From a virus (taxonomy: Duplodnaviria > Caudoviricetes): a DNA stretch of 31,544 bases. The notes under the pieces are model-generated. The model saw only the letters and a program-made list of their open reading frames with translations, made no database searches and was not told the origin of the DNA. Every line of letters begins with the position of its first letter. The stretch's first letter is position 1. Position numbers and translations under genes: made by a program. The DNA is taken from the IMG/VR virus record IMGVR_UViG_3300044608_001478, positions 1 through 31,544 of that record; one strand, given 5' to 3'. Of this stretch, positions 1,611-31,544 are shown piece by piece.

Positions 1611-3329
1611 TTAGATTATAGGTTCAAGAGTTGGTGCCTGTCCACCTGCCAGTTCTATCACATTACTACCAACATAGGAGTTGATGATGGGTTGAAGTTC
1701 TCTGTCCAGATCTGCAAAGATGGTGGAGAGTTGATTTTCCAAATAGGTGTTGCCTTTGTCAGTGACCAATTTCATGAGTATTTTGTAGGCAAAAAGGGAT
1801 TTTATTATATCATCTTTTTTGATAATGCCAGAGGCCAAAAGTACCTGCTTATCTTTTGAGTTGATGTGATAAATAGGATCGTATGACACCAGTATCTCCA
1901 CCATCCTGGAGATGGACTTATTCCCACTAAATCTCTTTTTTGCCAGATCCTTAGTTGTCTCTACCAAAAAGGCCACTGGGGCATTTTTGTCTGTGAGTTG
2001 GTTGATCTCATTAATCAAATCCACTTCTGTCTTCATGGAAAATGAGATAGGTTTGATGATCAATGGATCCATTGGATCACTCACATTCCTATATTTTTCA
2101 ATGAATTGGAGTGATTTGTAAATGATCTCATCAAAGATGTTGTTGGAGATCTTTGTTAGGACCATGAATGAGTCCTCTCTGTCAATCATCTTTGCAGTTC
2201 CACTCTGTGACTCATCAATGGTGTTGAGATGGAGTGCCTCCTCTGCCTTTTTGAGAAGAGTCTCCCAGGCATTGCCAGAATATTGAATCACATCCACTGG
2301 TGGTCCAATAAATCTGATCATGGGATCTGATGGTCCAGACTGCCCACCATCCAAAATGGAGTTCCCCTTCTCCCTCAAAAATACTCCAAAGGGTGATCTG
2401 GTGATCACTCTTCCTGTTCCTTTGCATATTCTACAGGCCACATTCTCCTCACTATCTGAATTCCAACAAAATCCATCCCTGCATCCAGGTGCAGAGCATG
2501 ACTCTGCCTGTTCCTCCCTGTAGGGGAAACATGATGTGGTCATCACTCCCTGCCAATCACTATATTGTCTGATGGCCTCATTGCCAAAAGGGACAAAGGC
2601 AGAAAAATATGAGTCAAAATATCCATCATCAGTGTAGTCACCACCCATCACTATTGCAGGGAGAGATCCTATGTTATGAGTGTAGACCAGGGTGAGTTTG
2701 AAACTTTTATCAGATTTTGTTCCAATCTGTTCATGTCTCCAAAATTCTGTTTTTGTCAGGGTGTAGTAGACCTCACCCTTCTCCACCAGTCTTCCATATT
2801 CTCTGATCATTGAATGTTCATCCTCTGCCTCCCAGGTGATGGCATCATCAGACAAATAGTAGATCTCATCAGAGTTCACAATGATAGGTTTGACCTCCAC
2901 TTTTTGAGATGAATCCACCATTCCTTCACCTTCTGGGATCCAGACCAGGAATCCATTGGGATCCTCAATCATTCTCCTGACTACATATTTTTGAATATAT
3001 GAATAGAAAAATTGACCACTGAATTTTTTTTGATCCAAATAGGATGAGAGTTCCTCACTTACCTGAATTGAGAAGTTGGCAGATCCAAAGATTCTATAAA
3101 GTTTATCAATGGCCCTGTTCATGGACCCTTTGGTGATGGGTTCATAGATGGATAGTCTGTATTTTTGAATTTCTGGATCCTCATTTGGTCTTCTGGATGT
3201 GAGGATCAATCCAGGACTTTTGCCTCTGGTATGGACAAACATGGTGTCTCTCACTCTCACCCATTGGTCAAAGTGTTTTGGTCTTTTTATTTTACCTAAA
3301 TTCTGGTTGAGAATTTCAATTTCAAACAT
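1611..3329 (-). CDS. Portal protein with an inserted Zn-finger-like segment
   Basis: 572 aa, immediately upstream of the MuF-like gene and the scaffold/capsid block. Portal-like motifs HNIGSLPAIVMGG and ESQSGTAKMIDRE. Internal CSAPGCRDG...CRICKGTG. Confidence 0.8.
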   Translation of the reverse strand: MFEIEILNQNLGKIKRPKHFDQWVRVRDTMFVHTRGKSPGLILTSRRPNEDPEIQKYRLSIYEPITKGSMNRAIDKLYRIFGSANFSIQVSEELSSYLDQKKFSGQFFYSYIQKYVVRRMIEDPNGFLVWIPEGEGMVDSSQKVEVKPIIVNSDEIYYLSDDAITWEAEDEHSMIREYGRLVEKGEVYYTLTKTEFWRHEQIGTKSDKSFKLTLVYTHNIGSLPAIVMGGDYTDDGYFDSYFSAFVPFGNEAIRQYSDWQGVMTTSCFPYREEQAESCSAPGCRDGFCWNSDSEENVACRICKGTGRVITRSPFGVFLREKGNSILDGGQSGPSDPMIRFIGPPVDVIQYSGNAWETLLKKAEEALHLNTIDESQSGTAKMIDREDSFMVLTKISNNIFDEIIYKSLQFIEKYRNVSDPMDPLIIKPISFSMKTEVDLINEINQLTDKNAPVAFLVETTKDLAKKRFSGNKSISRMVEILVSYDPIYHINSKDKQVLLASGIIKKDDIIKSLFAYKILMKLVTDKGNTYLENQLSTIFADLDRELQPIINSYVGSNVIELAGGQAPTLEPII

Positions 3330-3340
3330 CTTTTTGATTT

Positions 3341-4429
3341 TTAATAGTTACAGGAATATGTTTTTGAACAATCCACTCTTCTCATGGCAACATCAATCCA
3401 CCATTGATCACCCACCTCATTGTTTTTTGCAATATCTCCATCCACCACAATCTCATAGGAGTTGACATAGACTCTGGATCCATTGCAGATGTTTGCAATT
3501 ATTTTGGCCACCCTTTGTGGGACATGATATGTTCTCATCAACCACTTCTCTGTCATGGTGGAGGATGTTGTCTTCAATGTGGTCCCCACAAAATCTTTGA
3601 TGATCTCAAATGACTGCATCTCAAAAGATCCTTTCACCCTATATTGATTGACAAATGGGAAAAAATTCCCCAGGACCATGACGTCATCTGGATTTGATCC
3701 ATAGTAATATCCAAAACAATCAAATTGACCAAAATTTCCTTCCAGGAGAATGGTGTCATTTTTTTCTGTGCATTGCTCAAACTTGTATGGTTCCGTACAA
3801 AGGGAATAAGTTTGATCAATATCACTTGGATAGAAAGTAAATGACAAATAAAAGCATCCACCACTACTTGGGAATTGAGTCAATAGATCTGACTGGAGAT
3901 TCAATAGATCATTGACTCTGATCTGTTGAATATTTCTCCAGGTGACATCACCTTTGTAGTCATAGACAGGAAACATTCCAACAAAATACTCTGTTGAATA
4001 CATTGTCAATGAGATCGGATTCCCAAGTCCATCCAATAGCAAATCTCCAGAGCAACAATCATGGATGTAGGCATCCACCAAACCAAAGGGGTCCCACCCA
4101 AATACTGGTGGGACATTTGGATCCTGACCATTCAAACTATCAATTTGTTGGAATTGGAATATTAGATCATCAGAGAGATTAATGATGTTATAAAATAAAA
4201 GATCATTGCCACATGATCCACAATTCCATGTCTGATCACAATCACAAAGAAGTAGTCCATTGTTGACCACTGCCAGTCCACATGGGTTGTTTGGGTCACC
4301 TGGGACCCCACATTGAATGATCTCAAATTCACTGCAGACTATTCTGTCTAAGCAGGATGAGACCTCACAGGTTGGTGTGTTGTCACAGAAGATGTTTGCT
4401 CCATCTTGGTATGATGAGAAGTAGGCCAT
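3341..4429 (-). CDS. Cys-rich putative virion (tail) protein
   Basis: 362 aa with about 19 Cys counted by eye. Last gene of the block following the tape measure gene. Confidence 0.6.
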   Translation of the reverse strand: MAYFSSYQDGANIFCDNTPTCEVSSCLDRIVCSEFEIIQCGVPGDPNNPCGLAVVNNGLLLCDCDQTWNCGSCGNDLLFYNIINLSDDLIFQFQQIDSLNGQDPNVPPVFGWDPFGLVDAYIHDCCSGDLLLDGLGNPISLTMYSTEYFVGMFPVYDYKGDVTWRNIQQIRVNDLLNLQSDLLTQFPSSGGCFYLSFTFYPSDIDQTYSLCTEPYKFEQCTEKNDTILLEGNFGQFDCFGYYYGSNPDDVMVLGNFFPFVNQYRVKGSFEMQSFEIIKDFVGTTLKTTSSTMTEKWLMRTYHVPQRVAKIIANICNGSRVYVNSYEIVVDGDIAKNNEVGDQWWIDVAMRRVDCSKTYSCNY

Positions 4430-4433
4430 CAGT

Positions 4434-7364
4434 TTAAGGTTTTTTCATGAATAGACCACAGATTTGATATTTGCCCACTGGCAAAGATGTGACATCCACT
4501 TTGAATGTTGTTGGTCCATTGGAGAAGTTAGGATCCACATCATAGATCTGGACTGCATCCAGTTGAATGAATCCAGTTGTTGATGCATTGACACCATTAT
4601 CTTCCAAAAGATTGTTAATTCCATAGGGGAATGGATCCAGGAAGGCAATGATAGTCCCTACCATTGGATTCAATGTTCCATTTGTGTCCATGGTGCAAAG
4701 TAGATAGTCATAGGTCCCTGGACAGAATGGTCCTGCAAATGCCTCTGGTGGATTAGATCCTTTCACTCCCTCAATCTGCAATGGTTTCAACCATGATGTT
4801 GATGGGAGTGGATTTGTTTCAAAATCTGATGGATGTATTTTTCCAATGATGATCTGATTGACCACACATGGTTGAGTGAATAAACTGGAAATATCAAATT
4901 GGAAGACATACTCAAAAAAGATGTCTTTGTCACCCCAGTCAAAGGTCATGTTTTGGGTTGTCACAAAGGTATTGCCCAAAGATCCTGCAGGAAGTCTGTT
5001 GAATGGTGTGGCATTGTTGGCCACAAACACATTGGATCCATTCACTGGAAGAGTGTCCTCATATCTGACCCTGCCTTCCCATTGCAAAGTGATCAATGAT
5101 CCTGCAATGGCTGCCTGGAATCCTGAAGTGAGATTGTTCATGTCTCCTGGAAATCCCATTTGTCTGATTGATTGATATTGATTAAAATAGAAAAATGTAG
5201 TCTGTCCCAATGTAGGGAATCCCACTACTTTCCTGTAGACATTCAGGGTGATGTCCACCAAAAATTCAGTCCAGTTTTGGAGGGATGGGTTCCATCCATA
5301 ATCCTGGAGACATTGATCAAAGGATCCTGGACCAGATCCAGGAAGGGCAGTAATTTCATTTGAAATCCTTTCCTTCATAGTTGGACTAAAACAATAATTG
5401 TTCTCTGACTTCACATAGTCACTCCATGTTGATGTTGTTTCCATGTCACAACAGATTTCAATCCCAGGAATCTGGGTCACTGGAATCTGTTCAGAGATGA
5501 ATGAGTTGACCATGTTCCCAAAAAAGTCATAGGCCACTCCAATCAAATAATAGACTCCAATGGGATTGACTCCTGTTGGTCCTATGTGGACTGAACATTC
5601 ATAGGTGTTGGCTGCTATCAATGTAGGTGCAACCATTGGCCCCACAATCAAATTGTCCACTGGTGTATTAAAGGGGAAGGTGTAGACATTCACCCTGGAT
5701 GAATCATAGTTGCTTTTAAAGTCAGTAAAATTATTTATCCCACTGGCATCAATTAACCATAAAACGATATTTAAAATAGGTGTCCCTGCAGGATTTGTGA
5801 TTTGAAATTTGGCCTTTGTTTTCACAATGGTTGAAATATTCCCCACATTAACTGCATTCCTCTCAAAGGTGAAGACTGGATTTGTCATCTCACTGGCTCC
5901 ACCATAGAGTCCCTGATTGTAATATCTGCCAGTCATGGGGATGGTCTTTGTGATAAAACATTCAAATGGGACCTGATTTGGTGGGACTGGTGGTGTCTGT
6001 GTAGGATCACCAGTTCCAGGTTCATTCACCAGGACATTTGGGTCAACAATATAGGTCAACAGACACATTGTTTTGTCTGCATTGTAGACAGACTGGACTA
6101 CATTCTGGAATGGTGATGGTGCAAAGACATGGTTGTTCAGGAGTTTGGGTTGATTTGAAATCACCCCAGTGTCAATCCAGTTGTCCACATCTTCAATCAT
6201 ATAGAATTCCATGACAATCTGAAAGACATCAAGAGTCTGGAATTCAATGTTGACCTGGTAGTTTTTTTGACAATTTGCATTCACTCCTGCCCCATAAAGT
6301 GTCATCTGGTAGATGCCACCCATCATGGAAGGTTGAAATTTGATGTGCCAACCTGCAGGTGGAGGACCATCAATGTTCCCAGATCCATACTTCCCAGGAA
6401 TATTGCAGACCACATCCCACATCCATGGATTGAAATAGATGTCAATATTGGGACCAGAGAGAGTGTTGTTGTATTGATGAGAAAAATATAGGAATTTTTT
6501 CTCACCGATTGCAAATATTGTTTGGACCTCTCCAGATGTCAGATCACAAAGTCCTGCCTGATTTGGTAAAATAAATGGACTAAGTTCCTCTGATGAGATC
6601 CCCATGTCATAGCAGTTCAGACCACATCCTCCACAAATGACTGGAATTGGATTGATGTTGTATTTTTCAGCAATTGCTGAACAAATATCAAATTCAATAT
6701 TGCAGGGAGCATATTCACCATCACAGGCACAAAAAGTCCATTGGATCTGGGCATCTGTAAAAGGTGGAATGGTGATAGATCCTGGTGTTCCTGCTTGGGA
6801 AATTCCATCCACAAAATATTCAATATCTGGTGGGCCTCCACAATTAGTGTCACAACTACCAGGTGTCAAGTCCACCACTAAATTGAGACAGGTTGGATTT
6901 GAGATGATGATGTGATTTGGTTGAAGTTGGGTGCAGTCATCTTCACAAACAAACCAATCTATATCAAAAGGACCTGGAAATGGTGGGTTGAATGATGGAT
7001 CAACCACCACAAAATCAAAGTCAATATCCTGGGTGAAATTTGGTGTTTGTGCCTGGATTGATAGTCTTCCAGTCCAAGTGTCTCCTGGAGTGTAGCAGGT
7101 CCCACAAATCACCAATACAAATTTGATGTTTGTTGATTCATCCCCAGTCATTGTCAAATGAGGGACTAAAGGACTGGCCCATGGCAGACCATTGACTGAT
7201 TCTATATATCCACCACATCCATCACTCCAAATAAGAGCATGGATCTGTCTGTCCTGCTCACCTGGTGTCAAAGTGATCTCACATTCTATCTGTTGGCAAC
7301 AAATTGGGTAAATTGGATTGAGTCCGTTCCCAGTTATTTTCAAACAATTATTTACAAGTTGCAT
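4434..7364 (-). CDS. Large Cys/Pro-rich, beta-rich putative tail-tip / receptor-binding protein
   Basis: 976 aa with about 33 Cys and alternating beta-strand patterns. Two genes downstream of the tape measure gene. Confidence 0.6.
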   Translation of the reverse strand: MQLVNNCLKITGNGLNPIYPICCQQIECEITLTPGEQDRQIHALIWSDGCGGYIESVNGLPWASPLVPHLTMTGDESTNIKFVLVICGTCYTPGDTWTGRLSIQAQTPNFTQDIDFDFVVVDPSFNPPFPGPFDIDWFVCEDDCTQLQPNHIIISNPTCLNLVVDLTPGSCDTNCGGPPDIEYFVDGISQAGTPGSITIPPFTDAQIQWTFCACDGEYAPCNIEFDICSAIAEKYNINPIPVICGGCGLNCYDMGISSEELSPFILPNQAGLCDLTSGEVQTIFAIGEKKFLYFSHQYNNTLSGPNIDIYFNPWMWDVVCNIPGKYGSGNIDGPPPAGWHIKFQPSMMGGIYQMTLYGAGVNANCQKNYQVNIEFQTLDVFQIVMEFYMIEDVDNWIDTGVISNQPKLLNNHVFAPSPFQNVVQSVYNADKTMCLLTYIVDPNVLVNEPGTGDPTQTPPVPPNQVPFECFITKTIPMTGRYYNQGLYGGASEMTNPVFTFERNAVNVGNISTIVKTKAKFQITNPAGTPILNIVLWLIDASGINNFTDFKSNYDSSRVNVYTFPFNTPVDNLIVGPMVAPTLIAANTYECSVHIGPTGVNPIGVYYLIGVAYDFFGNMVNSFISEQIPVTQIPGIEICCDMETTSTWSDYVKSENNYCFSPTMKERISNEITALPGSGPGSFDQCLQDYGWNPSLQNWTEFLVDITLNVYRKVVGFPTLGQTTFFYFNQYQSIRQMGFPGDMNNLTSGFQAAIAGSLITLQWEGRVRYEDTLPVNGSNVFVANNATPFNRLPAGSLGNTFVTTQNMTFDWGDKDIFFEYVFQFDISSLFTQPCVVNQIIIGKIHPSDFETNPLPSTSWLKPLQIEGVKGSNPPEAFAGPFCPGTYDYLLCTMDTNGTLNPMVGTIIAFLDPFPYGINNLLEDNGVNASTTGFIQLDAVQIYDVDPNFSNGPTTFKVDVTSLPVGKYQICGLFMKKP

Positions 7365-7369
7365 GGTCT

Positions 7370-7377
7370 CAAATTTA
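7370..7377 (-). promoter_or_regulatory. Bacteroidota-type -7 box TAAATTTG
   Basis: Matches TAnnTTTG in the 21-bp intergenic gap, 5 nt before the ATG at 7364. No clear -33 box. Confidence 0.4.
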
Positions 7378-7385
7378 GTTTTTTT

Positions 7386-9194
7386 TTATAGAATACCAGT
7401 TACCTGGCAAGTCCTTTTGACAAAGTCAATCTGTACTTCCCTCACAATTCCATTGATCACCTGTCCACCTCTGATCAATCTCACATATTTTGCAAAGTTG
7501 AAATCATAGTAATTTGTGCAGTCAAATATGAATGTAAATTTGAAGTCCCATTTGGTCACTCCAGGAAGTCTGGGATCATCAATCCAATGGAATCCCACCC
7601 CATTATTTGGGATCCCATAGAGATTATTTTTATTTCCAGGCACAAACCAAAATGGATAATTGAATCTCTCATCTGGGGCTGCCCCTGGATCTCCTCCACA
7701 GAATGTGTTGTCATAGTCATATTTCACCTCACCATCAGAGGATGGGTTGTAGATGAGAAATTTGTAGTTGAAGGCAGTGTGTTGATTGACCAGTAATGCC
7801 CTATTATAGAATGAGAAGGCCCCTGCAAATACTGCATTGATCACCCCTCCAAGTGCATTCTGAAAAAAGGTGTAGATGTCTGTGTCAATTCCATCCTGTC
7901 TGTGTCTGGCTGCTCCCAATGGTAGGTTCACTGCCCTCTCTCCAGATTGTGATGGTGAGTAAGGGACATTCCAATCCACAATCTCATTGTACCTTGGGAC
8001 CAATGCCTCATTGCCCATGTAATCCTGGGCATCTGGAGCATACGCAAAACGTCCAAAGGCCCATCTCTCCTGTTCTGTCCAGTTGTAGCAGACCTGGTCA
8101 TCCACAATCTTCCCATCATTGAGAAGTTGTTCTGTGTCAATCCACTGGTTTAGTGTCAGAAAAAAGTCCTTTCTCTCCACAACCAGGATCCCATTCACAA
8201 TTCTGAATTCTGCATTGAATGTGGGTTTGACATATTCATTGAGTAAGGTTTCCAAAGTCTCCACTGGTTTGTTGTCATTGATCAATGTGAAGTCTGTTGA
8301 GTCTTTTTTTCTGCCCTTTTTTATTTGGGCTGCAAACAAAACTGCATTATAATAGGGAGATGATGGATCATTGAGGATGGATGACTGAAAAACCAATCCA
8401 CATTTGTCACAGACATTTTTGATGTAGTCTCTGATGTATGGTGATGGATGGAATCTTCCACAGGCAATGATTTGCCTGTTCGCATCCCTTATTGCATCAA
8501 ACATATAATTGATTGCCATCACTGGGTTGGTGAATGATGTGTTGCAATTGGGTGGATTGCAAAATGGACCAATTCTGATGGTGATAGTTCTCCCCAGAAT
8601 TCTGAATGATAGTGAGATCCCTTGACAAATGATCCTCACCAAAAGACAAATCAAATAAACACCACTTATCAATAGAAAAATGGCAGGTATCAATGGAAGT
8701 AGAATCAATTGAAATTGAATGTTAACCATAAACAAAATATAATACAAAACATATTGAATGAATTCTGGTTTCATCTCTATGCAATATCTGATGATGGGAT
8801 GGTTCCTGGAAAGGAATCCATTATGATTGTCCCAGATCAAAGTTGATCTGATGCAGTTGACCACAGAAGTGTCCTCCACCAAGTTGGCAGAGATCCAACA
8901 TCCAGGCTCACACCAGTCAATTGCATCACCTTTGATCAGACCCACAAAAACTGCATCTCTGCAACATGAATCATAGACTTTCACCTGGACCTCATTGGAA
9001 TATCCAATGGGATCATTCACCAGACTCTGATATAGAATTTGATAGGCATCATCATAAAAAGTGAGTTCACTGGAGAATGACTTTGCCAGTCCTCCATCAT
9101 CATCCTGGTTTCTCAAAGTCAAAACGAAGTTTTCCACTCCATCAATTCTGCCTGTGATGAGGGTTCCATTCAATTCTAACTTCATGGTTGACAT
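7386..9194 (-). CDS. Putative tail hub / tail-tip protein with a hydrophobic hairpin
   Basis: 602 aa directly after the tape measure gene. Hub-like segments (YIRDYIKNVCDKCGLVF; FNAEFRIVNGILVVERKDFF), a ~55-aa hydrophobic stretch and about 17 Cys. Confidence 0.6.
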   Translation of the reverse strand: MSTMKLELNGTLITGRIDGVENFVLTLRNQDDDGGLAKSFSSELTFYDDAYQILYQSLVNDPIGYSNEVQVKVYDSCCRDAVFVGLIKGDAIDWCEPGCWISANLVEDTSVVNCIRSTLIWDNHNGFLSRNHPIIRYCIEMKPEFIQYVLYYILFMVNIQFQLILLPLIPAIFLLISGVYLICLLVRIICQGISLSFRILGRTITIRIGPFCNPPNCNTSFTNPVMAINYMFDAIRDANRQIIACGRFHPSPYIRDYIKNVCDKCGLVFQSSILNDPSSPYYNAVLFAAQIKKGRKKDSTDFTLINDNKPVETLETLLNEYVKPTFNAEFRIVNGILVVERKDFFLTLNQWIDTEQLLNDGKIVDDQVCYNWTEQERWAFGRFAYAPDAQDYMGNEALVPRYNEIVDWNVPYSPSQSGERAVNLPLGAARHRQDGIDTDIYTFFQNALGGVINAVFAGAFSFYNRALLVNQHTAFNYKFLIYNPSSDGEVKYDYDNTFCGGDPGAAPDERFNYPFWFVPGNKNNLYGIPNNGVGFHWIDDPRLPGVTKWDFKFTFIFDCTNYYDFNFAKYVRLIRGGQVINGIVREVQIDFVKRTCQVTGIL

Positions 9195-22695: not shown

Positions 22696-23217
22696 TTATC
22701 CTCTACATGGAGGATCTCCAAAATAGAGTGCCATGACATTAAAATAGTTAATCGGACAGGTCATATTCACAACATTCATGTAGGCCTCATTGCAAATGTT
22801 TTTGGTGTGATCAAAAATAAAGAAGACCTCATCTCCTGGATTGACCAACAGAGAATTGGGAATTCCCCAAGTCAAATCATAAATTATACCACCAATAGAC
22901 ACATGAATTACTGCCACAGGATCATTCAAAAGATTTGTGGCAGTTGCTACAAATTTCAAATAAACAGAGCATTCAGTTCCACGAGAAAACCATGAATCTG
23001 AAATCATAGAGGAATTCCCAACAGGTGCAGTGGTCACACCAAAATAAGGAGAATCTATGCCAAAGTCACCACAACAGGGGGGTGGGACAGGTTCTCCTCC
23101 TGGACCAAAAACATTTTCCCATGATGCCTTAGATCCACAACAGGCAGGTCTTTGGTTGACTTTCTCATATTTTGATCCAAGGTCTTTGACCACCTGGTTG
23201 ATTGATTTTTTTGCCAT
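22696..23217 (-). CDS. Cys-rich putative virion protein (173 aa)
   Basis: 8 Cys including two CC pairs; beta-rich C-terminal half; end of the late block. Confidence 0.6.
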   Translation of the reverse strand: MAKKSINQVVKDLGSKYEKVNQRPACCGSKASWENVFGPGGEPVPPPCCGDFGIDSPYFGVTTAPVGNSSMISDSWFSRGTECSVYLKFVATATNLLNDPVAVIHVSIGGIIYDLTWGIPNSLLVNPGDEVFFIFDHTKNICNEAYMNVVNMTCPINYFNVMALYFGDPPCRG

Positions 23218-23218
23218 G

Positions 23219-23656
23219 TTATTCCTCCCACAATAGTTTTGAGATAATTGTCAAAATCATGTGTGAAAGGACCACACATGGAATAAACCACCACAGGGAC
23301 AAATCAAAGTGCCACCATGCAATAAAAAATGATGCCTGTGTCACCCATATATTTTGGCAAAAGGCACAAAGTCCCAGTGGGTTTGCTAAAAATCCCAATG
23401 GGTTTTTTGGATTGTCTCTCCAATACTTCTCAATCCATCTGATCCACCATCCAAAGATGTGACCTGGTTGGTAGGTAAATTGTAGAAAAAAAGACAGGAA
23501 GGATGATGTTGTGGCCACCAGTGCCACCATCATAAAACCATTTGACTTCATCTGAACAAAAATGCCCATGCAAAGTCCTATGACCATTCCAATGATCAAC
23601 ATCAAAATGGGCATAGTTGGAATGATGATCTCTTTGTCTTCTTTTTTTATAGACAT
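23219..23656 (-). CDS. ~4-TM membrane protein with a CxxC motif (DUF1360-like; candidate thiol oxidoreductase)
   Basis: Four hydrophobic segments; LGLCAFCQNIW (CxxC at 23368-23357) at the start of the third. ATG 23656 preferred over the track's 23674. Confidence 0.55.
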   Translation of the reverse strand: MSIKKEDKEIIIPTMPILMLIIGMVIGLCMGIFVQMKSNGFMMVALVATTSSFLSFFLQFTYQPGHIFGWWIRWIEKYWRDNPKNPLGFLANPLGLCAFCQNIWVTQASFFIAWWHFDLSLWWFIPCVVLSHMILTIISKLLWEE

Positions 23657-23976
23657 GATGTGAGTGGTTGACAAATTCCTGGAATTCCTTTGGCCATAAA
23701 CATACAGGCCCCATCAATCGTGACATGAGTGAAGTATGTTAGTGAGTAGGCTGCAGGGACCTGGATTTTGATCATGGTCTCCCCATTCTCATTGAAGACA
23801 TAGGGGATCTGGATCTGATCACCCAGGTCAAAGGTGAAGGTCTGGGTGAGGAATCCTCCATTGGCCCAGATCTCAAATGTCACCTGTGTTCCATTGGGCC
23901 AGGGACTTTGAAATCCAAAATCAATATTCTCACATGACATAAAACATCCAAGGTCTTTTGAACAATTGCAATTCAT
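23647..23976 (-). CDS. Small Cys-rich beta protein (109 aa), putative virion component
   Basis: MNCNCSKDLGCFMSC...GAC...GIC...TSCL, 7 Cys. Confidence 0.6.
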   Translation of the reverse strand: MNCNCSKDLGCFMSCENIDFGFQSPWPNGTQVTFEIWANGGFLTQTFTFDLGDQIQIPYVFNENGETMIKIQVPAAYSLTYFTHVTIDGACMFMAKGIPGICQPLTSCL

Positions 23977-23997
23977 GATTTTATTTTTTAAATTTTA

Positions 23998-24540
23998 TCA
24001 AAAATAAGATTTTTCAAACGTCAGATCAAAGTCAACTGCAACAAAGATGAGATTTTTGTCAAATTGTTTTGGTTTTGGGACCTCATCTTTCATCACCTGA
24101 ATGGAATCAATCTGACTCCTTCTGGGAATCATCTGGATGCCTTTGATGTCTGGTTGATCTGGAATCCTGCAGGACATGAGTCCCAATCTGATTCTCTCCT
24201 CCAGATTGTATGGATCCAGGCCTTTGCCACAGGCCACCAGTCTCAATTCATACCTGGTCAACATCCTTTTGTGATTACAGGTGAAATTTTTCCCATTTGC
24301 TGACTCCTCAAAAAAGATCTCCCCACCATCCCTGTGTCTGATATAGAAGTAGTCACTCTCTGTGTCAGAGATTCCTGCCCATTTGAATTCATTGGATGTG
24401 GGTGATGTCTGCATGAGGATTCTGCCCTCATCATCAATTCTGGCCAAAAAAATGGACTTATTAAATTCTGGGACATATCTGATGATCTCATTGCAGATCA
24501 TCTCCAGGAAGTCATGGATTTGTGTGTTCATAGTTGTCAA
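23998..24540 (-). CDS. Putative tail terminator / neck protein
   Basis: 180 aa after the tail-completion-like gene; C-terminal beta strand IFVAVDFDLTF. Call rests mainly on synteny. Confidence 0.45.
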   Translation of the reverse strand: MTTMNTQIHDFLEMICNEIIRYVPEFNKSIFLARIDDEGRILMQTSPTSNEFKWAGISDTESDYFYIRHRDGGEIFFEESANGKNFTCNHKRMLTRYELRLVACGKGLDPYNLEERIRLGLMSCRIPDQPDIKGIQMIPRRSQIDSIQVMKDEVPKPKQFDKNLIFVAVDFDLTFEKSYF

Positions 24541-25055
24541 ATAAATTGTGAGAGTATCTTATCTATTTTTTCTGTGACCAGGTCATCAATATAAATTTGA
24601 ATTGCAATCTCTTCCTTTTTTGTTGGTTCAAAAATCTCCATCTGTCCTCCACCCTTTTTTTTGCCCTGGATGATCTCATTGCCTATTGCCTTCTGGTAGT
24701 CTGTATCATTGTCAATTGCCAAAACCACTGAATCACCAGATTTGAGGACTTTGATGGATCCCATCAATGATCCAGTGAATGATAGGTCAACATATCCAGT
24801 CTGTAGTCCTCTGGGTGATTTTCTCTGTGCCCCTTTTGTCCCCTTCACTGGCCTTCCAATTTTTCTGATTCTGGCCCACTGGGATGAGTAGTCAGATGAG
24901 ATCAACTTATCTTCTGAATTCAGACCCTTGTTGAATATCCTCTGTTTGTATCTGCCCTCCAGGTTTTTGGCTGCTGCCAGCAGGATGTCTCCCTTCTGTT
25001 CATTGAGAGAGATGGTGATATTCTTTAATAATTGTGCAGCCTGGTCAAATGTCAT
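24537..25055 (-). CDS. Putative tail-completion / virion morphogenesis (neck) protein
   Basis: RIFNKGLNSED...YS..WARIRK...VDLSFTGSLMGSI pattern typical of this family. Confidence 0.65.
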   Translation of the reverse strand: MTFDQAAQLLKNITISLNEQKGDILLAAAKNLEGRYKQRIFNKGLNSEDKLISSDYSSQWARIRKIGRPVKGTKGAQRKSPRGLQTGYVDLSFTGSLMGSIKVLKSGDSVVLAIDNDTDYQKAIGNEIIQGKKKGGGQMEIFEPTKKEEIAIQIYIDDLVTEKIDKILSQFI

Positions 25056-25056
25056 G

Positions 25057-25503
25057 TCATTTTTTTACTGATTGTATCAAATATCCAAGGGCAAAGATTG
25101 CCACAATGATGAATGCCAAAGTCCAATAGATCTCCTTCTTTTTTGCAAGGGTCTGAATTCTCTCAATGGTGGTCTCTGTTCTGATCTTCTCAATGGTGAT
25201 GGTGTCTGCAGGACAGAGTGGTTCCACCCAGATTGAATCCCCAGGGAGTCTGACTATTTTTATCTGGACATCAGTTTTTTTGTCCAAAATAAAGATTGTG
25301 TCCATGTTCATCACAGACACAATGGTGTCAAATGATCTGATGGATGTGATGATAGTGGTGTCTATGAAAGTGGTCACCATATTGGTTGATCCTGGGAATC
25401 TCTCTGCACATCTCTGTGCAGAGATACAACCATTAACAACCATCATTTGGAATCCTATTGCCAGAAGGATCACTATTTTTTTGAGTCTCATTTTTGTAGA
25501 CAT
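25057..25503 (-). CDS. Putative unimolecular spanin (lipoprotein with C-terminal TM helix)
   Basis: Basic plus hydrophobic signal ending VNG-C, Thr/Ile beta-rich middle, C-terminal TM IYWTLAFIIVAIFALGYLI. Follows the holin. Confidence 0.6.
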   Translation of the reverse strand: MSTKMRLKKIVILLAIGFQMMVVNGCISAQRCAERFPGSTNMVTTFIDTTIITSIRSFDTIVSVMNMDTIFILDKKTDVQIKIVRLPGDSIWVEPLCPADTITIEKIRTETTIERIQTLAKKKEIYWTLAFIIVAIFALGYLIQSVKK

Positions 25504-25957
25504 CTATTTTTTTGTAGAATATCCCTGCAAAGTCCTTTTTTATAAGACCCAACAAAGACAAATTTTTTATGAGTGACACCAGGTTGACCATCACCAGTGG
25601 GACAAAGACTCCCTCATTCATCCAAGATAGAACAACCGATCCTTTTGACAAAGAGTTTGCAAAGGCCAACAAGGCAGTGTGGGACAATAGGGTCCACAGG
25701 ATCCTCATTGACTTCCTGGTCTCAAAGGCATCCCTCTTCCACGCCAAATACATCCCACTGATGTGATCTGCTATGATCAACAAAATAAGGGCATAGAAGG
25801 AAACTGCAGGGTCATAGATCCAGTCCACCACAAATGAAGACATTGACCCAAGGGTGAATCCTCCCATTGTGAACATTAGTAGGAATTCATTTTTCAAATT
25901 CAAAGAGAGGACAGAATTCATTATCTCTTTGGCCTCACTCAGTGCATAGATTTTCAT
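25433..25957 (-). CDS. Holin
   Basis: Several TM helices; LIIADHISGMYLAW...SLIKNLSLLG resembles phage holin family 4 motifs. Near the amidase and spanin. Confidence 0.75.
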   Translation of the reverse strand: MKIYALSEAKEIMNSVLSLNLKNEFLLMFTMGGFTLGSMSSFVVDWIYDPAVSFYALILLIIADHISGMYLAWKRDAFETRKSMRILWTLLSHTALLAFANSLSKGSVVLSWMNEGVFVPLVMVNLVSLIKNLSLLGLIKKDFAGIFYKKIDVYKNETQKNSDPSGNRIPNDGC

Positions 25958-26061
25958 CTTTTTGGTTTTATTGGTCTAATTGGTTTTTGTGGGGATGCAG
26001 GTCTGGGTTTGGATCCTCCACAGGATCCACAGGCCATGTAAATGTTGAGATCTTTAATCAT
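25954..26061 (-). CDS. Tiny basic CxxC peptide (35 aa, or 27 aa from ATG 26037)
   Basis: Hand translation MIKDLNIYMACGSCGGSKPRPASPQKPIRPIKPKR. A-rich leader; stop overlaps the holin ATG (ATGA). Confidence 0.6.
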   Translation of the reverse strand: MIKDLNIYMACGSCGGSKPRPASPQKPIRPIKPKR

Positions 26062-26082
26062 GATTTTTGTTTTTTGGTTTTT

Positions 26083-27024
26083 TTATGGTAGTCCCTGCAC
26101 ATATCTGGACTGATTGCAAGTGATACAACAATCATCCACCTTCTGCAACAGGGTGGGCAAAGATGCAATGAGAGTTTTCATGTGTTTTTCATACTGACTG
26201 GTGAATTCCTCCAATAAAAAAGCCCCCTTTTCTGAATCTAACAAGGTGATAGAATTCAGTCTATCTGTGGTCAGTGATTCCTTCACCACTTCAATTCCAG
26301 ATTTGTAAAGTATAGGGAAGACCAGTTTGTGGGCAAGGATGCAACCAAGTTCATTCTGTGAACATTCTGCATTTGCCTGGACCATGAGTCCATAGGTTGT
26401 ATTTGAATAGGATGATCCATTCCATCCAGTGGCCACAATGTATTGTGAATTTCTGGTGGTGCAGTTGCATCCAGGTTTGACTTTGGTGTTGTTGACATTG
26501 ATAGCACTATCATCCATAGTCACATAGATGGAGGCAGATGAAGAGAGGAAGTCTGGGAAGATTTCTGCATCTCCATTGGCATCAGTAGTGAATGGCCAGG
26601 AATAGGTGTTGACTCCATCAATGATCTCCACAGAATGGGCAAAGTTTACCTGTTGGATTTTTATTTTGATGGAATTGACTCTGATTTTCAAAAGTCTGGA
26701 TTGTTTAATTTTCAATTCCATGCCTCTGTCCAGTGCTGATGGAGGAAGATTGTTGGTTCCCCAATCACCTACCAGGATCTCATCCAGGATGGACTTCATT
26801 CTGAAGTAGGGCAGGGCATAGGTTGTCAAATCTGCCAGGACCAGACTGGTGGCAAAATAGATTTTGGATTTGAGAAATTCAAGTCCAGAGACATGGTCTG
26901 AATCCACTATGTCTGCAGCATATCGAAGATTCAATCCTTCCAGATCATTTATGTAGAATCCTGATTTTGGACTTTGGGTGAGACATCTCACTCCAATGAA
27001 GTCATTGAGACAATTTGGGAGCAT
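26083..27024 (-). CDS. Putative head-tail adaptor / neck protein with an inserted beta domain
   Basis: 313 aa, helical ends around a beta-rich core, 9 Cys (PGCNC, DDCCITC). Positioned after capsid and tail tube. Confidence 0.5.
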   Translation of the reverse strand: MLPNCLNDFIGVRCLTQSPKSGFYINDLEGLNLRYAADIVDSDHVSGLEFLKSKIYFATSLVLADLTTYALPYFRMKSILDEILVGDWGTNNLPPSALDRGMELKIKQSRLLKIRVNSIKIKIQQVNFAHSVEIIDGVNTYSWPFTTDANGDAEIFPDFLSSSASIYVTMDDSAINVNNTKVKPGCNCTTRNSQYIVATGWNGSSYSNTTYGLMVQANAECSQNELGCILAHKLVFPILYKSGIEVVKESLTTDRLNSITLLDSEKGAFLLEEFTSQYEKHMKTLIASLPTLLQKVDDCCITCNQSRYVQGLP

Positions 27025-27526
27025 AGTTAAATGGATCTATTTTGTAGATATTTTTATCAGATATTTTGACCAGGCATTTGTTGACCAGGTAGTCTGGGAC
27101 CCAGAATGATGGGCAGGATTTATTGTCAAATTGATTGTGACCTGCAATGATCACATCTGGATTGTAGGATAGGACCTCTGCAATGATAGTTGACATTGTT
27201 GCATTTTGGGCATCTGTCAATGTATTTTTTGCAGTCTTTTTATCCTGTGCCAGTCCTCCAACATAACAGAGATGCCTGGAGATGGAATTCATTCCTGCCA
27301 CCCCATTGGTGATCTCTTCACCATCAATCCATTTGTCGAAGTTGTGTTTGACAAATTTGTGTCTGGATCCATCCAAAAGGATGACATCTGAATATCCTAC
27401 CTGTTTCCATCCTCTGCCCAATGGTTTTGGTGCAGTGTGCCACTTTCTTATAGTCTGTGGTGTCACTTGCCTCCCTTCTGGAGTGGCAGTGCAATGGATG
27501 ATCAGATAGGTGAATATTTTACTCAT
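27002..27526 (-). CDS. Endolysin, N-acetylmuramoyl-L-alanine amidase (Amidase_2, T7 lysozyme-like)
   Basis: IIHCTAT, RGWKQVGY, CYVGG and IAGHNQFDNKSCPSF zinc-amidase motifs. Confidence 0.93.
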   Translation of the reverse strand: MSKIFTYLIIHCTATPEGRQVTPQTIRKWHTAPKPLGRGWKQVGYSDVILLDGSRHKFVKHNFDKWIDGEEITNGVAGMNSISRHLCYVGGLAQDKKTAKNTLTDAQNATMSTIIAEVLSYNPDVIIAGHNQFDNKSCPSFWVPDYLVNKCLVKISDKNIYKIDPFNYAPKLSQ

Positions 27527-28029
27527 GACTCTGGATCTTCAGTCAGTTCTGGAAATGGTGGGTTGAATGGTTCCTCCACCATTGGTGATGGTGATGGGAT
27601 CTCCAATGTTCCACTGATCAAAAAAGTGTCATATTTTGGATTCTCACATTTTTCAACAATGATATTGGGATAGGTCTCTTTCAACCAATTGAACATTCCC
27701 TGAATCTCTTTGTTTTCTTTATACCTATAGGCATACTTATTAAAAAGTAGAACAACAGATTCACCATTGCAGAGTGTCTCTTTCCAGGATTCCTGGACTA
27801 CAGAGATTGATTCATTTTCTGCCAGGGTAAAAAGTCCCATTTTTTTCCTTACCTCATTGAGTCCTTTTGTGTCTCTTCCCTGCAATGACCAGATGGGCCA
27901 TGTGTCATCATCTACCTGTCCCACCAAAATGGTGATGTCATAGGATCTCCCTATTCCATAGTGAATGGCATCCACTGCAGCAATGACCACTGGGTTGATA
28001 TTTTCAAGTTTTGGTTTTTCGTTTATCAT
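27523..28029 (-). CDS. Hypothetical protein with Pro/acidic tail (168 aa)
   Basis: ORF coupled to the amidase (ATGA). Confidence 0.7.
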   Translation of the reverse strand: MINEKPKLENINPVVIAAVDAIHYGIGRSYDITILVGQVDDDTWPIWSLQGRDTKGLNEVRKKMGLFTLAENESISVVQESWKETLCNGESVVLLFNKYAYRYKENKEIQGMFNWLKETYPNIIVEKCENPKYDTFLISGTLEIPSPSPMVEEPFNPPFPELTEDPES

Positions 28030-28051
28030 GATTTTATTGTTTAAATTTTAT

Positions 28052-28097
28052 CAAAAATAATAAAGGGACCCAAAGAATCAAATCCTGGGTCCCTTTA
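28052..28097 (-). terminator. Rho-independent terminator after the capsid and tail tube genes
   Basis: 12-bp stem TAAAGGGACCCA/TGGGTCCCTTTA (28061-28072 / 28086-28097), followed on the - strand by TTATTTTTG, which also matches TAnnTTTG. Confidence 0.8.
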
Positions 28098-28122
28098 ATA
28101 TTTAAACGAGTTAGTCAGTGGA

Positions 28123-28668
28123 CTACAAACCATCCAAATCCACCACCACTGGGCAGATCATTGTGATTGAGTTCCATGCCAGTGACCCATCAAGATAGGT
28201 TGACCCTGTGTTGTTGTCTTCAATCACCTCATCAATTTCAATAGTGAAATCATTGATGGGGCCATAGAAATAACCATCACAGGAATAATATCCCATTTTG
28301 TAATTTGATGACTGACTCTGGAATGTATTCCAAAAGTCATAAACTGCACAACCACCAGGTGTTGAATCTGTGTTGTAGTCCTGGAATGTGAGAGTCTTCT
28401 CACCACCAACCACTGATTCTGGTTGACATGATGCCACCCTTTTTTTGGTGAATGATCCTTTTGGTTTTTGACCCAAAATCAATCCAGAGAAGACTGCATT
28501 GTTTGCAGCGACTGCAGTGACCCAGGCAGACCGAAGAGTCCAGTCCCATGTTTCATCACATTTGATGAAGATTATTTGTTTTATCCCACCTGGTCTGGTA
28601 GTGATGCCACATCCTCCAGTGTATGATGCTGGTAGATCTGGGGCACATAATGTGTTGCATATTGCCAT
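28123..28668 (-). CDS. Probable major tail tube protein
   Basis: 181 aa, beta-rich; CG...GGIKQIIFIK, KRVASCQPE.VVGGEKTLTFQD, YYSCDGYFYG. Shares a terminator with the capsid gene, consistent with a high-copy protein. Confidence 0.65.
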   Translation of the reverse strand: MAICNTLCAPDLPASYTGGCGITTRPGGIKQIIFIKCDETWDWTLRSAWVTAVAANNAVFSGLILGQKPKGSFTKKRVASCQPESVVGGEKTLTFQDYNTDSTPGGCAVYDFWNTFQSQSSNYKMGYYSCDGYFYGPINDFTIEIDEVIEDNNTGSTYLDGSLAWNSITMICPVVVDLDGL

Positions 28669-28704
28669 GATATTTTTCCTCCTTTTTTTTTATTAATTAA
28701 TTAA

Positions 28705-29724
28705 TTAACCTGGACAAACAATTCCTTGGTCAGTGCTGCAATCTTCAAAAGATAGAGTTCCATTGATGTCTGCATCTGCACATGATGAATTTTGTGGCAC
28801 AAAGAATTGATTGTAATTCAAACTAAGTTCAACAAACCATTTTTCAGTGCAATCATCATAACTTGTTTTTAAGTCATAGACCAATCCAGTGAATGGATCA
28901 ACAATGGTTCCATGCTCAAAAGAGTCATTTCTTTTTGCATAGTCACCCACATATTTGTTCCAGGTGATTAACTGAACAGATCCTGGCGCAATAGCAGCAA
29001 ACATTGTGGATCCCCACAAAGTTGATGCAGATGGTGAATGATAGAAGTACGCATCACCAGTCATTCGTGATAGATCCATTCCACCAGAATTGCAACAGGC
29101 AATTTGTTGTGCCTTTGCAAATAGGTCAAAGTTTCCACCACCAACCAATAATGGTGTTCCCATGGCTCCCATCTCTTCATAGATGTGTTTCACATAGGCC
29201 CATGCCATTGGATTTGGTGATCCAGTTGATGTAAACAATGGGACGGGGTGAGCAGTGACTCCTGATGCATCAGATCCATAGTTCAATGCCTGTCCTGCCA
29301 AAAGTGCCTTCTCTAAAGAGACATTGATTGCATTCATTGCATTCATAATGTTCTGACCCACCCATAAATTGTCTGCCTCACATAATTTTCTCATCTCCAT
29401 TTCATCAAATCCCATTTTGTATTTAAGGCAATTGAATGAAGAGATGATTGTCTCTTTTGGTGCAGGATTGATTTCTGGTGTGCAGTTCAACACACAATCA
29501 TCCAATACAACATCATCACAGGCCTGGGCCACCCAGTTCACCTGTACTTGTCGAAATTTTCCATTAGTTGGGACTATTTGTGCCATCATCTGTGATCTGT
29601 TGATCTCGGACATGAGTGCATCAGTATACCCTACTTTTTGTCTTTTTAAAGAGGGAGAGTTCATCCCTGCAATATCATTAAGGTTGGCCTGTAGTTTACT
29701 ACAAAGGCCTTGAGTGTATGCCAT
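28705..29724 (-). CDS. Major capsid protein
   Basis: 339 aa after the scaffold gene, with an HK97-like layout (long helix NIMNAMNAINVSLEKALL, then GTPLLVGGG); 12 Cys. Confidence 0.8.
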   Translation of the reverse strand: MAYTQGLCSKLQANLNDIAGMNSPSLKRQKVGYTDALMSEINRSQMMAQIVPTNGKFRQVQVNWVAQACDDVVLDDCVLNCTPEINPAPKETIISSFNCLKYKMGFDEMEMRKLCEADNLWVGQNIMNAMNAINVSLEKALLAGQALNYGSDASGVTAHPVPLFTSTGSPNPMAWAYVKHIYEEMGAMGTPLLVGGGNFDLFAKAQQIACCNSGGMDLSRMTGDAYFYHSPSASTLWGSTMFAAIAPGSVQLITWNKYVGDYAKRNDSFEHGTIVDPFTGLVYDLKTSYDDCTEKWFVELSLNYNQFFVPQNSSCADADINGTLSFEDCSTDQGIVCPG

Positions 29725-31203: not shown

Positions 31204-31544
31204 TTTGTTTCTATTATGGTATCAAGTTTAATTCCTATTGACTGGGCATAGTCCTCAAACCAGGCAAAGACTTTGGGATGATTTGTTTTAAGTCCCTTTC
31301 TGTCATAGGTATAAAAGGTATATGCCTCTGTGAAAAATTCCATTTTGTTGCTCTCACCATATTCTGTTGGAGAATCTTTGAGGGTCAATTGATATTTTCT
31401 CATGAATTCTTGCATATTATATCCACTCAATAAGACATCTGGATCTTTATCAAATTGAATGAGATGACCACTCTCATGGGTGATGGTGGGTGCAATGTTT
31501 CTCACTCCCCTATTTGCCACTCCTGCAGAAGACATGGACCACCA
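31200..31544 (-). CDS. 3' end of the MuF-metallopeptidase gene (not an independent 111-aa gene)
   Basis: Same frame as 1-1606 through the terminal repeat. THESGHLI...SPTEYGESNKMEFFTEAY...HPKVFAWF matches the lethal-factor-like zincin pattern. Confidence 0.85.
   Translation of the reverse strand, partial: WWSMSSAGVANRGVRNIAPTITHESGHLIQFDKDPDVLLSGYNMQEFMRKYQLTLKDSPTEYGESNKMEFFTEAYTFYTYDRKGLKTNHPKVFAWFEDYAQSIGIKLDTIIETK
31400..31544. repeat. Terminal direct repeat, right copy
   Basis: 144/145 identical to 1-145. Confidence 0.97.

Follow-up and report, generated by a model that had tools for sequence, protein, structure and literature searches.

The window analysed here is the complete 31,544-nucleotide stretch of IMG/VR record IMGVR_UViG_3300044608_001478 (Duplodnaviria; Caudoviricetes). 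It carries a set of cysteine-rich virion genes together with the gene for a 145-residue membrane protein with a CxxC motif, a candidate thiol oxidase for virion disulfides. A direct repeat of 145 bp is shared by its two ends (positions 1-145 and 31400-31544; 99.3% identity, one mismatch), and the window was therefore read as the circularly permuted genome, of ~31.4 kb, of an uncultured phage; the record is classed as linear. Every gene lies on the minus strand, and terminase, tape measure, holin, amidase, SSB and RecT were recognized using Pfam and PHROGs. The original prediction, made from the letters alone, had placed a disulfide-formation system for a cysteine-crosslinked virion at 22696..29724; the genes for the 602-, 976- and 362-residue proteins that it counted in lie outside that span, at 3341-9194 of the permuted genome. 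The features concerned are as follows.

28705..29724, minus strand: major capsid protein, 339 residues, HK97 fold; 12 cysteines (Cys), gained and lost in pairs.
28123..28668, minus strand: likely tail tube, 181 residues, from gene position and a weak profile match; 8 Cys.
26083..27024, minus strand: 313-residue protein at the adaptor position (positional label); 9 Cys, five of them near-invariant.
25954..26061, minus strand: basic CGSC peptide of 35 residues, directly after the adaptor-position gene.
23998..25055, minus strand: neck-type protein of 172 residues (phrog_6195 tail, weak; 0 Cys) and likely terminator of 180 residues (4 Cys).
23647..23976, minus strand: 109-residue protein with an N-terminal CxC arm and C102; its gene overlaps that of the membrane protein, of which it is a likely partner, unless it is a small virion component.
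23219..23656, minus strand: 145-residue membrane protein, DUF1360/phrog_781-like, with invariant C97-x-x-C100; candidate thiol oxidase.
22696..23217, minus strand: 173-residue protein with two CC motifs; found in close relatives only and not a core part.
7386..9194, minus strand: 602-residue protein after the tape measure, at the hub position (positional label); 17 Cys.
4434..7364, minus strand: 976-residue distal tail-block protein (tip label positional); 33 Cys, 13 of them near-invariant in 21 homologues.
3341..4429, minus strand: 362-residue distal tail-block protein; 19 Cys, with three perfectly co-varying Cys pairs.
1611..3329, minus strand: likely portal by position, 572 residues; four-Cys CxxxxC...CxxCxGxG motif resembling a zinc site.

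Among the labels proposed at the outset, that of the capsid was confirmed by its HK97 fold (Foldseek E 5e-8; in a further fold comparison, Z 15.4, root-mean-square deviation (rmsd) 4.4, 262 residues aligned). The tube is identified by position and a weak profile match, and adaptor, hub and tip by position only. No match to the capsid was found in any cultured phage; many relatives of the phage are present in IMG/VR. A Bacteroidota host is weakly suggested by one database name (Aequorivita) attached to a 45% identical capsid and by a gene order common to PDS1-type phages.

The predicted Cys counts were all reproduced: 12 in the 339 residues of the capsid, 8 in the 181 of the tube, 9 in the 313-residue protein, 17 in the 602-residue, 33 in the 976-residue, 19 in the 362-residue, 8 in the 173-residue and 7 in the 109-residue protein, with none in the tape measure, the scaffold and the 194-residue chaperone. 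Nine virion-shell proteins together contain 108 Cys in 3692 residues (2.93%), compared with 48 in 3563 residues (1.35%) for 20 non-structural proteins (Fisher p = 3e-6). Two proteins of the shell block show no enrichment: the 172-residue neck protein, with 0 Cys, and the portal, with 6/572. The Cys-free tape measure, which had been offered as an internal control, was rejected as such because 0 or 1 Cys is usual there, as in six reference phages (Milano 0/778, Pam3 0/588, NBD2 1/899, PDS1 0/1164, FPSV-S2 0/1102 and P2559S 0/1207).

The distribution of the cysteines among homologues was then compared. The capsid set (n = 115) was prepared from 120 matches by removing five shorter than 320 residues and exchanging the near-copy of the window for the window itself. 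All 115 sequences contain 6-14 Cys, and the number is even in 104. C77 and C99 occur together in 69 sequences and are jointly missing from 46, neither ever being found alone (four tree steps). C69 is accompanied by a Cys at 312-322 in 57/57 sequences, both being absent in 58/58, and a Cys near position 156 is accompanied by a second one there in 17/17. Among the 574 non-Cys capsid columns with 3-5 steps, only seven have a partner of the same residue type at phi >= 0.9. The tail tube has an even Cys count in 65/65 homologues. In the 362-residue protein the 64/211 pair is complete in 29 sequences, missing in 11 and single in none (six steps); pairs 198/209 and 293/352 also co-vary perfectly. When five families were pooled, a partner at phi >= 0.9 was found for 6/18 variable Cys columns and for 16/2637 columns of other residues.

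Disulfides are favoured over four-ligand zinc sites because gains and losses repeatedly involve two cysteines at once, at positions distant from each other. From these alignments it is very probable that the Cys pairs are disulfides and the virion disulfide-cross-linked. This part of the original prediction is well supported by the paired gains and losses and by the precedents of Milano, Jabs, PD491P1 and crAss001. In the alignment of the 313-residue protein, relatives almost never have Cys at both positions 267 and 270, as though a single partner on another protein could be reached from either position. The portal appears to be an exception: residues 278-302 hold a CxxxxC...CxxCxGxG motif, three Cys of which are lost together in loci L050-L052, and which looks like a zinc site; we take it to recall the DnaJ-type zinc finger.

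The membrane protein had been described as having about four transmembrane helices with CAFC at the start of one. The structure model does contain four helices, with CAFC (C97-C100) opening the third (helix 93-117; mean predicted local distance difference test score (pLDDT) 70, from 6 sequences), but the first is missing from most homologues and the conserved core has three. C97 and C100 are kept in 225/226 aligned rows, the lone miss ending before the motif; this invariance is partly circular, the homologues having been gathered with a CxxC-bearing profile. The near-invariant residues are the CxxC and a glycine two residues before it, and no others. A third Cys occurs at position 61 in 146/221 rows and is replaced by Thr in the window protein. 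An excess of Lys and Arg was found on the CxxC side in 150/150 sequences by a positive-inside count that sets one long loop against short ones. Because of this excess the CxxC is predicted, with good confidence, to face the cytoplasm. The gene was found in 26/28 related records; the other two seem truncated, their loci stopping before its slot (both ends were inspected for G017 only).

A structural comparison had been proposed with DUF1360, DsbB and VKOR. The window protein has no match to DUF1360 at E <= 1 and falls below the curated Pfam cutoff, the best homologue scoring E 0.0064. With a threshold of E <= 0.01, phrog_781 is matched by 40/150 homologues (best E 2.4e-6; the window protein itself is unmatched) and DUF1360 by 3/150. 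Alignment of profiles with the PDS1 gp55 set using hhalign gave a probability of 50% (E 1.6e-4), and the top Atlas cluster (0.92) has DUF1360 in 42% of its members. By its homologues and profiles, the 145-residue protein is a distant DUF1360/phrog_781 relative. Among viral structures, its highest-ranking fold match was to a membrane protein of crAss001, at E 0.087; no viral match reached E <= 0.001.

Kinship with DsbB or VKOR was rejected. Their Pfam families gave no match in 150 homologues (E <= 0.01) nor in 20 (E <= 1), and a PDB sequence search with the membrane protein gave nothing at E <= 10. Neither fold appeared in the top 50 of 48,161 chains, a ranking from which absence does not exclude a fold; the best match was an unrelated transporter (Z 7.7, rmsd 5.4, 121 aligned; query model of pLDDT 70 from 6 sequences). 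No confirmed relative was found in the bacterial genomes searched. The protein remains a reasonable oxidase candidate, given its invariant CxxC, the predicted cytoplasmic orientation of that motif and the presence of the gene in nearly all related records, but it has no detectable DsbB/VKOR kinship and one invariant Cys pair.

The 109-residue gene and the membrane gene have 10 bases in common. A gene with an N-terminal CC or CxC adjoins the membrane gene in 76/77 loci, the lone miss being at a locus edge; it lies upstream in most loci and downstream in L118, L121, L132 and L135. Because the link persists despite the changed gene order, the 109-residue protein seems a better partner candidate than the CGSC peptide. 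Duplicated or lengthened copies of the CC/CxC gene occur (L121, L122); a role in virion decoration would be compatible with this as well. No usable Atlas, PDB or PHROG match to the 109-residue protein was found. In Milano, the linking protein LP1 is reported to combine a Cys arm with an immunoglobulin-type domain (PMC10491603). Directly upstream of the 109-residue/membrane pair, a conserved protein of ~302 residues unlike any window protein is encoded in one branch (L106:10592-11500, L110:819-1727, L117, L126 and L128).

The tiny CGSC reading frame (35 residues, 25954-26061) is genuine: in 73/93 loci the adaptor-position gene is followed by a basic peptide with CxxC or CxC (49 distinct peptides: 31 CxxC, 18 CxC), and several of the 20 loci without it in that slot have a peptide further downstream. 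In L027, L028, L033-L035, L038, L039 and L049 a small basic gene of ~90-100 residues separates the adaptor-position gene from that of the Cys peptide. The peptide had been cast as the shuttle of the oxidase, a role that the data do not favour: its gene travels with the adaptor gene and not with the membrane gene, and a different neighbour, the 109-residue gene, is linked to the latter. Milano gp5, with CGCGC, is a look-alike by composition only; its counterpart in phage 7-7-1 was mapped to gp111 from GenBank notes and gene order and is reported among the proteins detected in purified virions (PMC3517404). Because of this finding, the CGSC peptide is likely to be a small virion component rather than a shuttle.

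Further genes were noted in the block. The holin (PF05105), the amidase and a 148-residue protein lie within the head-to-tail gene block, at 25057-25957 and 27002-27526 (minus strand). The 148-residue protein has a lipoprotein-like N-terminus, a hydrophobic C-terminus and two conserved Cys, and is a possible unimolecular spanin. In one capsid branch (L128:1137-2342, L126, L125, L106 and L117) the capsid reading frame has a hydrophobic N-terminal extension of ~65 residues. It resembles a membrane anchor or signal sequence and could keep the assembling capsid attached to the membrane in which the CxxC protein lies.

We propose, with a probability of roughly 0.45, that the DUF1360-like membrane protein acts as the thiol oxidase for the virion disulfides. 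The phage would build a disulfide-cross-linked virion, the bonds being formed by the membrane protein during or just before lysis. Its cytoplasm-facing CxxC would take electrons from virion thiols, directly or through the 109-residue protein, the N-terminal cysteines of which possibly replace the missing second Cys pair. The electrons would be passed on to membrane quinone by analogy with DsbB and VKOR, of which the protein would be a minimal, inverted counterpart. The chemistry is feasible in the cytoplasm because inverted DsbB and VKOR work in this way in engineered Escherichia coli, where they have been used as catalysts of cytoplasmic disulfide formation (PMC5471842). More tentatively, DUF1360/phrog_781-like proteins may constitute a novel class of thiol oxidases, minimal, quinone-linked and facing the cytoplasm, with which tailed phages staple their virions inside the host; here the protein would act as a two-gene module with the 109-residue CxC protein and with the Milano CPCC protein as an independent version.

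The oxidase reading was weighed against three others. It is quite possible, if doubtful, that the virion disulfides arise spontaneously, or are made by host Dsb enzymes, at lysis or afterwards, and that the membrane protein and its 109-residue neighbour act elsewhere in morphogenesis, for example in membrane anchoring, the CxxC being metal-binding or structural. Late, possibly spontaneous bond formation is proposed by the Jabs authors (bioRxiv 10.64898/2026.07.24.740622), and host DsbA or air oxidation is favoured in PMC13576161. Among other phages, phrog_781 was found in 0/3 of Milano, NBD2 and Pam3, all with reported virion disulfides, and Milano has no DUF1360 match either. The tube disulfides of NBD2 were studied on recombinant protein with no other phage genes present (PMC13576161). 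In Croceibacter phage P2559S a DUF1360-like CxxC gene is retained, yet the 342 residues of the capsid contain no Cys (tube 2/213, adaptor 6/426). Spontaneous or host oxidation leaves unexplained, however, the near-invariance of the CxxC and of the glycine two positions ahead of it, and of no other residue, as well as the location of the gene among the structural genes in two distant lineages whose tubes and adaptors contain Cys. Air oxidation would moreover be limited in the hosts of PD491P1 and crAss001, which are gut anaerobes. Less probable is a reductase or isomerase that maintains the virion Cys in reduced form, or rearranges mispaired bonds, up to the end of assembly. The invariance of the CxxC, the topology and the gene linkage would fit this role equally, a lone CxxC giving no direction. 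Such an activity is nevertheless unlikely: the cytoplasm is already reducing, so that a phage reductase would add little, and no Pfam match to a thioredoxin fold was found in the 40 window proteins scanned. Finally, the virion Cys might mainly bind metals such as zinc, leaving no disulfide network to catalyse. The portal motif, with three Cys lost together in one clade, and the CxxC motifs in several tail proteins would agree with this, but the repeated gains and losses in twos between distant positions make it very improbable.

Several points besides the absence of phrog_781 from three disulfide-bearing phages, the recombinant NBD2 tube and the Cys-free capsid of P2559S weigh against the oxidase reading. 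The membrane protein has a single invariant Cys pair, compared with two for DsbB and VKOR; the circularity of the CxxC count, the unequal loops in the charge count and the failed tape-measure control were given above. Odd Cys counts predominate in the 313-residue (51/71), 362-residue (27/40), 180-residue (33/52) and 109-residue (38/56) families, which is compatible with inter-protein bonds but also with free thiols. Co-occurrence of the CxxC gene with Cys-rich virions, for which a test had been proposed, extends outside this lineage to PD491P1 but not to Milano, NBD2 and Pam3 or to the Cys-free capsid of P2559S. Cys-poor relatives that could serve as a negative control were absent from the 115 capsid homologues (all with at least 6 Cys), and no lineage lacking both the CxxC gene and a Cys-rich virion was found; the co-occurrence may be explicable by shared ancestry. 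Flavobacterium phage FPSV-S2 was tried as a gene-less control and rejected, a diverged CxxC gene being present in the same slot.

Disulfide-stapled virions are already known. To these the window contributes specific co-varying pairs, the order-independent link of the 109-residue gene and the evidence against a peptide shuttle. According to a 2026 paper (PMC13576161), descriptions of a dedicated thiol oxidoreductase are lacking for phages, and the catalyst of virion disulfides is called an open question in the 2026 Jabs preprint. In the literature searched, which leaves most subscription journals uncovered, no phage oxidase for virion disulfides was found named. The gene family indicated by this locus has a name and has members in cultured phages (PDS1, PD491P1 and B124-14), so that the question is directly testable, and from the co-varying pairs particular bonds are predicted for a virion family without a solved structure. 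If the oxidase reading is true, it would provide a function for DUF1360, explain how virion disulfides arise in a reducing cytoplasm and supply a natural cytoplasm-facing oxidase of fewer than 150 residues.

The poxvirus pathway E10-A2.5-G4 is comparable to the proposed system in its proposed purpose only. In that pathway the virus supplies its own means of oxidizing virion proteins within the reducing cytoplasm (PMC13576161). Among the 40 window proteins scanned, none matched an Erv/ALR or thioredoxin-fold Pfam family. The likeness to DsbB (PF02600) and VKOR (PF07884) lies in the layout, the CxxC of these enzymes standing at the N-terminus of a membrane helix, as in the window protein. Their CxxC faces the periplasm, whereas that of the window protein is predicted to be cytoplasmic (150/150), with one invariant Cys pair instead of two. 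A connection between DUF1360 and spore-coat genes of Bacillus (yjcA) was not confirmed, the passage concerned listing yjcA merely as a sporulation gene.

Solved disulfide-bonded virions are reported for Agrobacterium phage Milano (PMC10491603) and Mycobacterium phage Jabs (bioRxiv 10.64898/2026.07.24.740622), and tail disulfides for crAss001 (PMC10172136). Milano and Jabs share with the window a Cys-rich shell and tail, and Milano also a Cys-free tape measure; the window shell has 2.93% Cys, compared with 2.1% cited for Milano (PMC13576161). No sequence kinship was found between the shell proteins and those of Milano. Milano gp4-gp5 (L137:3913-4287) comprise an 81-residue CPCC membrane protein directly before a 42-residue basic CGCGC peptide, just upstream of the terminase. 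The CPCC protein, found by tblastn only in Milano, 7-7-1 and OLIVR4, differs in family from the window membrane protein, and the pair is possibly an independent version of the same module.

Parabacteroides phages PDS1 and PD491P1 are placed in one candidate genus (PMC10773633); the PD491P1 gene product is 98.8% identical to PDS1 gp55, annotated as DUF1360. Close kinship of the phages was rejected on the basis of the capsid comparisons (probability 0.1% and, by hhalign, 7%), and a PD491P1-type capsid was not listed in either capsid fold search; the PDS1 capsid has 4 Cys compared with 12 in the window. PD491P1 is likewise a siphophage with a DUF1360 gene, a similar gene order and a weakly similar tube N-terminus, and an extensive, virion-wide disulfide network is reported for it (Cai et al., 2026, as cited in PMC13576161). 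PDS1 gp55, a member of DUF1360 (PF07098)/phrog_781, is like the window protein a small membrane protein in which a CxxC opens a helix and is followed by an aromatic residue, and its family also has its gene in the structural block after the terminator-position gene. The window protein is distinguished from this family by its extra N-terminal helix and by the linked 109-residue gene.

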